From the NCBI RefSeq assembly GCF_003334405.1, contig NZ_QOWM01000002.1: 64,000 nucleotides of DNA; one strand, written 5' to 3'. Below the pieces are notes generated by a model that saw nothing but the letters and a program-made list of their open reading frames with translations, was not told the DNA's origin and searched no databases. This stretch comes from Escherichia coli (GTDB taxonomy: Bacteria > Pseudomonadota > Gammaproteobacteria > Enterobacterales > Enterobacteriaceae). Every line of letters begins with the position of its first letter. Position 1 is the stretch's first letter. A program made the translations under genes and the position numbers. Positions 58,298 to 58,500 of this stretch are shown piece by piece.

Positions 58298-58330
58298 AAA
58301 AAAACGGCCAACGTCGGAAGACGTCAGCCG
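58298..58330 (-). terminator. Attenuator-like intrinsic terminator in the alx leader, just upstream of its ribosome-binding site
   Basis: Minus-strand RNA cggcugacgucuuccgacguuggccg followed by U7, then auguguaaggaacuucuAUG. Confidence 0.6.
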
Positions 58331-58500
58331 CTGCTTTTTATGCATAGACCTCGCCTTCCGGCAAGGTCTCACTTACAACAAAAAAGGAATACGTCTGCGT
58401 ATTCCTTTCGGGTTGCCCGGTGACCGGATGTGTTTTTTCACACATCGTAATGACGATCGACCGGCAATGAAGTTACTCCCCTTTGCAGGTAACAAAGTAT
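58331..58500 (-). ncRNA. Structured alx 5-prime leader (yybP-ykoY / PRE-type riboswitch region)
   Basis: Minus-strand leader contains GGGGAGUA (complement of tactcccc at 58474..58481) and a downstream gagaccuugccgg segment, matching conserved parts of the yybP-ykoY motif known upstream of alx. Boundaries approximate. Confidence 0.55.

Follow-up and report, generated by a model that had tools for sequence, protein, structure and literature searches.

Sequence and comparative analysis of the alx leader of Escherichia coli as an atypical yybP-ykoY manganese riboswitch

Whether the leader of alx in Escherichia coli is a manganese-sensing riboswitch of the yybP-ykoY type, and whether it acts on transcription, on translation or on both, is the question raised by the ygjR-alx region of the 64,000-nucleotide stretch of DNA analysed here (the window, to which positions refer unless another locus is named). 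Positions 58200-58650 (minus strand) are the ygjR-alx intergenic region of E. coli K-12 MG1655 with 100% identity; this region was found in 5420 of 5426 complete E. coli genomes, the flanking genes are its sole RefSeq annotation, and the RefSeq MG1655 records contain no riboswitch or RNA feature at either the alx locus or the mntP locus. A sequence-only reading of the window had described a leader of about 200 nt before alx on the minus strand and had assigned it to 58298-58500. A leader of 207 nt is found at 58281-58487 (minus strand) and is the PRE or SraF of the literature; the assigned interval includes 13 nt of the promoter, ends at the U-tract and omits the Shine-Dalgarno (SD) sequence. 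The observation made in that reading is correct and its interpretation is supported, with no novelty, the element being already known. The length of 207 nt holds if transcription starts at 58487, a position deduced from the published adenosines A11, A37 and A137, which then fall on adenines; with this start, the published 110- and 190-nt termination sites are the ends of two T-tracts. The leader shows no difference from the published E. coli element, with which it shares as landmarks these three adenosines, the termination sites at about 108-110 and 190 nt, P5, P6, the P5/P6 helix and the pairing of the ribosome-binding site (RBS) with L1/P1.1.

The regulated gene (57315-58280, minus strand, from the list of open reading frames) encodes a TerC-family membrane protein of 321 aa, the RefSeq "TerC family membrane protein Alx", and the leader thus lies upstream of a membrane protein of the Mn2+-homeostasis type, as is expected of the RF00080 family. 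The alx promoter (58494-58522, minus strand) consists of a -35 hexamer TTGACT (58522-58517), a 17-nt spacer and a -10 hexamer TACTTT (58499-58494); it was not listed by the promoter scan owing to its weak -10, and TTGAC with a CATAYTTT-like -10 is kept across genera at the same spacing 5′ of the leader. The SD sequence AAGGAA (58291-58286) is 5 nt before the alx ATG (58280-58278), the two together spanning 58278-58291 (minus strand). The whole leader folds with -97.9 kcal/mol, at z -9.4 versus shuffles.

The yybP-ykoY core that had been recognized in the leader, GGGGAGUA as RNA and GGGGAGTA as DNA, is present at 58481-58474 (minus strand), where it holds the published A-minor adenosine A11 (58477) and aligns with the RF00080 consensus UUGGGGAGUAGC seen in mntP and Staphylococcus matches. 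The 3′ L1 strand is GUGAGACC (GTGAGACC as DNA) at 58372-58365, and the leader contains an L1 loop of the RF00080 type, with 5′ GGGGAGUA and 3′ GAGAC strands flanked by P1.1 and P1.2. The octamer GGGGAGTA alone is at chance level (one match versus 0.73 expected per window, with at least one match in 51 of 100 shuffles), and none of 100 shuffles contains the tripartite motif AGGGGAGTA...TCATTAC...TGAGACC, which exceeds chance expectation.

A scan of genomes with the tripartite motif, using one genome per species, gave at least 120 matches. Among the matches listed, 112 of 120 have an Alx ortholog of 57-99% identity directly downstream, and the other eight comprise six loci that end before the gene and two outside the Proteobacteria. 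A motif match in a Bacteroidales MAG (L085), with no Alx downstream and no Rfam match at the gathering threshold, was set aside as a probable chance match. The alx-type leaders number 114 (113 among the matches listed plus the one in the window) and occur in at least about 35 Enterobacterales genera and in at least 13 Aeromonas species (Aeromonadales). The Aeromonas leaders (L007, L013, L014, L021, L022, L035, L043, L080, L081, L083, L087, L094 and L108), which precede Alx orthologs of 57-60% identity, have the three-way junction, the L3 sequence UCAUUAC, P5, and the P6 terminator followed by the SD sequence. To judge from these sequences, the occurrence in Aeromonas is a small extension of the range of the subclass, contrary to the statement in a 2025 NAR paper (PMC12153347) that alx-like riboswitches occur only in Enterobacteriales. 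For comparative folding, 41 leaders with less than 90% mutual identity were aligned from the matches listed (alignment A1), and RNAalifold recovered from this alignment the P3.1-L3-P3.2 leg, P5 and P6.

The fold of nt 1-127 contains a predicted Mn2+-sensing aptamer of the alx type, a three-way junction formed by nt 2-127 (58361-58486, minus strand), and the literature model is the same. In this fold, P1.1 pairs 58486-58480 with 58366-58361, L1 brings together 58479-58474 and 58370-58367, and P1.2 pairs 58473-58470 with 58374-58371. The L3 loop UCAUUAC (58453-58447) lies between P3.1 (58464-58454 with 58426-58417) and the P3.2 hairpin (58446-58427), both of which are defined by covariation as well as by the fold, and P4 (58416-58375) is likewise backed by covariation at its base (all on the minus strand). 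There is no four-way junction and no P2: P1.2 and P3.1 lie just 3-7 nt apart in each of the 41 leaders, folding gives a three-way junction, and alx has been described as an atypical yybP-ykoY variant without P2 (PMC12153347). L3 is a one-sided loop of 7 nt at the expected site, with UCAUUAC, the published alx-like L3 consensus (PMC12153347), versus the family consensus ACAUACU.

Among the 41 leaders, changes on both sides of a pair were found in 6 of 10 pairs of P3.1, 5 of 5 pairs of P3.2 and 3 of 5 pairs of the P4 base, and 95-97% of the cells of the aptamer helices are paired, versus 28-44% in slid controls. The body of P4 is too variable to align; although its sequences are unrelated, it forms a single hairpin of 17-58 nt in all 41 leaders, with z below -2 in 39 of 41. 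P1.1 and P1.2 are 98.8-100% paired, yet invariant. P1.1, L1, P1.2 and P5 never vary, and so covariation speaks neither for nor against them; the invariance of P1.1, L1 and P1.2 is partly forced by the search pattern, which fixes L1, L3 and the 3′ L1 strand. The combination of invariant L1, L3 and 3′ L1 strand with covarying aptamer helices argues for selection on the binding core.

A scan with the Rfam covariance model RF00080 had been proposed as the means by which the assignment could be refuted. No match at gathering was found in 7 kb around the alx leader, nor did segments of 451 nt and 141 nt yield one at E ≤ 10 (Rfam 15; the model, named "Manganese", has 177 positions and a gathering threshold of 45 bits). 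The model likewise detected 0 of 13 alx-type leaders from other genera, and the experimentally validated E. coli mntP aptamer (L002 2462-2558) scored 41.6 bits, itself below gathering, whereas a Staphylococcus borealis aptamer (L086 6686-6792) scored 54.4 bits. The Staphylococcus aptamer, with the same L1 and L3 plus P2, is detected, and thus the miss of the alx leader stems from its architecture and not from its loop sequences. The outcome is a false negative that reflects a limit of the model and not of the RNA; after the mntP, Staphylococcus and 13-leader controls, Rfam was discarded as evidence of absence. The locus is therefore a calibration case, in which a correct call from sequence would have failed the very test proposed with it: such a call can be wrongly rejected because RF00080 of Rfam 15 and the RefSeq annotation are both blind to the alx-type three-way-junction subclass. 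Among sub-threshold Rfam matches to the alx aptamer (58377-58490, minus strand), SSRC10 (RF02617) was the best, at 17.6 bits and E 0.2, far under its gathering score of 56 and possibly due to chance. Sub-threshold matches to the sRNAs STnc370, STnc240, STnc450 and RydC were rejected as merely terminator hairpins.

Two intrinsic terminators are predicted in the leader. The one adjacent to the SD sequence (P6, hairpin D or site D; 58298-58332, minus strand) had been described in the sequence-only reading as a hairpin followed by U7, 17 nt before the ATG, and then the SD sequence AAGGAA, and each of these parts is found where it was placed: the stem-loop is at 58332-58303, the T7 run at 58304-58298, and 17 nt (58297-58281) separate it from the alx ATG at 58280. 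The hairpin has 13 pairs, 7 of them GC, with a dG of -20.4 kcal/mol and z -5.3, was listed by the terminator scan, and would release the transcript at nt 190 (58298); in E. coli, pairing of an A-tract with the U-tract lengthens the stem to 58345-58292. Compensatory changes occur in 9 of 11 pairs of P6 among the 41 leaders. A hairpin with a U-rich tail adjacent to the SD sequence is found in 110 of the 114 leaders among the matches listed, its U-tract ending a median of 13 nt ahead of the start codon.

The inventory of terminators in that reading included the SD-adjacent hairpin but overlooked a second terminator-like hairpin inside the aptamer. This hairpin, site B within P4 (58378-58409, minus strand), has a stem-loop of 12 bp (58409-58382, 4 GC) with U6 at 58385-58380, a dG of -14.4 kcal/mol and z -5.0; it was also listed by the terminator scan and would release RNA at about nt 108-110 (58380-58378). 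Site B is terminator-like in 36 of 114 alx-type leaders among the matches listed, in which it is confined to Escherichia, Citrobacter, Kluyvera, Raoultella, Salmonella and relatives, and in 4 of the 41 aligned leaders under a stricter rule (a U-run of at least 5). Single-round transcription in vitro with E. coli RNA polymerase yields RNAs of about 108 and 190 nt (PMC9472077), and sequencing depth drops after 110 and 190 nt (PMC12153347). The Edwardsiella leaders (L023, L032, L063 and L122) keep the aptamer and P5 and have no U-rich tract after the region equivalent to P6; a terminator-like site ahead of the SD sequence is missing from these four and from no other alx-type leader among the matches listed.

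The aptamer and P6 are connected by P5, a hairpin of nt 119-142 (58346-58369, minus strand) that is part of the full-length minimum free energy (MFE) fold and matches the published P5. P5 takes the 3′ strands of L1 and P1.1, and thus excludes the closed aptamer. For nt 119-128, the alternative partners are nt 2-18 in the aptamer and nt 133-142 in P5, and both pairings of this switch helix are conserved; 93.9% of the cells of P5 are paired in 41 leaders, with 0 of 10 pairs changed on both sides. A further helix, the predicted ON-state P5/P6 helix (58315-58360, minus strand), pairs nt 128-136 and 138-141 (58360-58347) with nt 165-173 and 159-162 (58329-58315), leaving A137 (58351) bulged in agreement with the published active conformer, and is mutually exclusive with both P5 and the P6 terminator. 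It was recovered by constrained folding and is the unconstrained MFE only near a transcript of 176 nt, an optimum just before completion of P6 that fits a co-transcriptional decision. Five of its 13 pairs have compensatory changes among the 41 leaders, and one pair is GC in 26, AU in 10 and GU in 5; no shuffle attained the observed values, and pairing collapsed in the slid controls.

The full-length MFE fold is the published OFF state (PMC12153347). In this E. coli fold, the 5′ strand of L1/P1.2 (nt 16-18 and 8-13) pairs with nt 197-199 and 202-207 (the SD sequence and spacer), and the published model has the same RBS pairing (PMC12153347); when P1.1 is forced, the MFE keeps P6 and pairs GAGGUC with the RBS. 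Among the aligned leaders, 95.0% of the cells of the OFF structure are paired versus 28-44% with slid partners, 23 of 42 pairs are changed on both sides, and 0 of 500 shuffles of the 41 leaders reach these values, in a control that ignores phylogeny and is applied to structures derived from the E. coli sequence. Conservation of the pairing between L1 and the RBS was undetected in equilibrium tests: in most genera the complementarity does not exceed that of shuffles (median duplex z -0.4, with 9 of 41 leaders below -1.5); the SD sequence pairs with the L1 strand in 9 of 38 full-length folds, which is a weak test of a kinetic switch because the folding is at equilibrium; and SD accessibility in equilibrium folds was not raised in silico by closing the aptamer (median 0.46 against 0.42). 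In vitro probing detected Mn-dependent changes in L1 and L3 and an expression platform largely similar with and without Mn (PMC12153347). Taken together, the comparisons support maintenance of the aptamer helices, P6 and the competing P5/P6 helix by compensatory change.

The alx leader is very probably an atypical yybP-ykoY Mn2+ riboswitch that switches between OFF and ON states as follows. At low Mn2+ and neutral pH, the 3′ half of the aptamer would be captured in P5, and P6 with its U7 would form 17 nt before the ATG, so that part of the transcripts would end at nt 190; in transcripts that are read through, the freed 5′ strand of L1/P1.2 would pair with the SD-AUG region. When Mn2+ is bound, as would be favoured at alkaline pH, P1.1/L1 would remain closed and the 3′ half of P5 would pair with the 5′ half of P6, removing the terminator and freeing the SD sequence. 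The P4 terminator, acting at about nt 108-110, would cut overall output before the sensing pocket is complete. Regulation by Mn2+ and alkaline pH through the leader, which the sequence-only reading had stated, is borne out by published work (PMC12153347, PMC10197570), including Mn-dependent induction of a reporter via the alx leader (PMC10197570). Termination at P6 is presumably modulated by the ligand in vivo.

In Firmicutes yybP-ykoY switches (Lactococcus lactis yoaB, Bacillus subtilis mntP/yybP), Mn2+ stabilises P1.1 and thereby blocks a downstream intrinsic terminator, which competes directly with P1.1. The competition between P6 and the P5/P6 helix in alx would follow the same logic, except that P5 relays the signal, the terminator is 17 nt from the start codon, and the response in E. 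coli is mainly translational. The mntP leader, a canonical RF00080 member, shares with alx the L1 core GGGGAGUA, the P3.1-L3-P3.2 leg, P4 and a P1.1 switch helix that overlaps the expression platform. Both leaders control a Mn exporter, and both have been described as translational ON switches (PMC12153347). The mntP aptamer has a four-way junction with P2, ACAUACU as L3, and the 41.6-bit RF00080 score given above; alx, in contrast, has a three-way junction, UCAUUAC as L3, two intrinsic terminators, pH dependence, and no RF00080 match. The S. borealis aptamer resembles alx in its L1 (GGGGAGUAAC), its L3 (UCAUUAC) and the sequence UGAGACC, but keeps P2 and passes RF00080 at its 54.4 bits; the presence of UCAUUAC in this canonical P2-containing aptamer implies that the loop variant is not specific to the enterobacterial alx group. 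The consensus of Streptococcus SSRC10 also resembles alx, with GGGAGUAG, CGUCAAUA, GAGACC and then a terminator, and SSRC10, although catalogued as an sRNA, therefore has the look of a riboswitch of the yybP-ykoY type. In the DNA examined, neither the S. borealis aptamer nor SSRC10 precedes an Alx ortholog.

The apportionment between transcription and translation bears on the first alternative, a purely translational riboswitch in which P6 would only position the RBS for occlusion, the terminator look would be incidental, and termination would be unregulated. Reporter fusions respond by up to 68-fold in translation versus 1.5- to 2.7-fold in transcription (PMC10197570), and the field calls alx a translational riboswitch (PMC12153347). 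PMC9472077 gives a termination at site B in vitro of about 46% at pH 7.2 versus 43% at pH 8.5, and at site D one described only as "slightly larger" at neutral pH; this small pH difference implies that the ligand has no more than a modest influence on termination in E. coli. By the published data, translation is the larger effect in E. coli. Against the purely translational alternative stands the near-universal terminator form of the SD-adjacent hairpin (110 of 114 leaders among the matches listed), with a U-rich tail that is kept in genera without the upstream A-tract and is thus not explained by extension of the stem. The helix that dismantles P6 shows compensatory changes, whereas the specific L1:RBS pairing on which occlusion would depend appeared unconserved in the duplex and equilibrium-fold tests. 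RNA polymerase terminates at 190 nt in vitro (PMC9472077; PMC12153347), and deletion of PRE raises transcriptional output (PMC10197570). The purely translational alternative is therefore doubtful, and the combination of attenuation with translational control put forward in the sequence-only reading agrees with the reporter effects on both levels, translation being dominant in E. coli (PMC10197570).

With the riboswitch acting at both levels as the preferred reading, a more general and tentative proposal may be made: Mn-controlled antitermination at P6 could be the ancestral and general output of the alx-type subclass in Enterobacterales and Aeromonas, and occlusion of the RBS by L1 and the P4 terminator could be lineage-specific overlays. 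This possibility draws on comparative evidence, namely on the frequency of P6 with a U-tract (110 of 114) compared with that of the P4 terminator (36 of 114) among the matches listed, and on the covariation of P6 and its competitor, as opposed to the L1:RBS pairing, whose conservation was undetected in equilibrium tests. The comparative additions are incremental (the presence in Aeromonas, the conserved SD-adjacent terminator and competing helix, the lineage-restricted intra-aptamer terminator, and the apparently lineage-restricted L1:RBS pairing), and could help specialists to sort the general parts of the mechanism from those specific to E. coli.

A second alternative is that termination at P6 produces a stand-alone sRNA (SraF, about 190 nt) that acts in trans, control of alx being secondary. 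The leader was originally discovered as the sRNA SraF (PMC9472077), an RNA of just this kind would be released by the terminator at nt 190, and interplay between a riboswitch and an sRNA has been described for a Staphylococcus Mn riboswitch (bioRxiv 10.1101/2024.09.30.615890). An Alx ortholog, however, follows 112 of the 120 matches listed, and six of the other eight end before the gene, which is typical of a cis-regulator; SraF is not known to have a trans target, and the literature has reassigned it as the alx riboswitch (PMC9472077). This alternative is improbable.

Still less probable is a ligand-independent pH element, operating only through RNA polymerase pausing and folding kinetics, in which the likeness to yybP-ykoY would be vestigial. 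This was the original model of PRE, as cited in PMC9472077, and the blindness of RF00080 to the aptamer, the missing P2 and the divergent L3 would be in keeping with it. It is opposed by the invariance of L1, L3 and the 3′ L1 strand in at least about 35 genera in combination with covarying aptamer helices, and by the occurrence of the UCAUUAC L3 in the RF00080-positive Staphylococcus aptamer. According to published work, the pH response requires Mn binding, and alkaline pH is unable to switch the RNA on its own (PMC12153347); a 2026 preprint (PMC12934788) states that pH tunes the Mn2+ sensitivity of the aptamer. That there is no riboswitch at all, and only a chance GGGGAGUA beside an ordinary structured leader, would accord with the lack of an RF00080 match, the octamer frequency of 0.73 per window and the lack of a RefSeq RNA feature, but is refuted by the comparative data (the tripartite motif absent from shuffles and upstream of Alx orthologs in at least two orders, strong covariation, and a model that misses the whole subclass) together with the extensive experimental literature.

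Other features of the region were noted. An open reading frame of 22 codons with its ATG at 58345 (58278-58345, minus strand) traverses P6 and terminates at a TGA that shares bases with the alx ATG (ATGA). It was rejected as a leader peptide: its start, frame and stop are unconserved among related leaders, and it is not kept even in another genome of the E. coli group, which has T8 instead of T7; it is probably not a gene. A perfect inverted repeat of 10 bp with a 9-nt loop surrounds the alx -35 hexamer, with arms at 58502-58511 and 58521-58530 (ACAGACCATT / AATGGTCTGT), just downstream of the ygjR stop (58563). Its arms co-vary in other Enterobacteriaceae (CAGGCCAT/ATGGCCTG, CAGGACATT/AATGTCCTG and GGTCA/TGACC), and since they change together, an RNA hairpin fits better than a protein operator; the repeat (58502-58530) is probably the terminator of ygjR, overlapping the alx promoter. 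Downstream of the alx stop, between alx and sstT, is a G/C-rich imperfect palindrome, CTCCCTCTCCCTTCCAGGGAGAGGGTCGGGGTGAGGGT (57225-57275, minus strand), which may resemble an E. coli boxC-type intergenic repeat.
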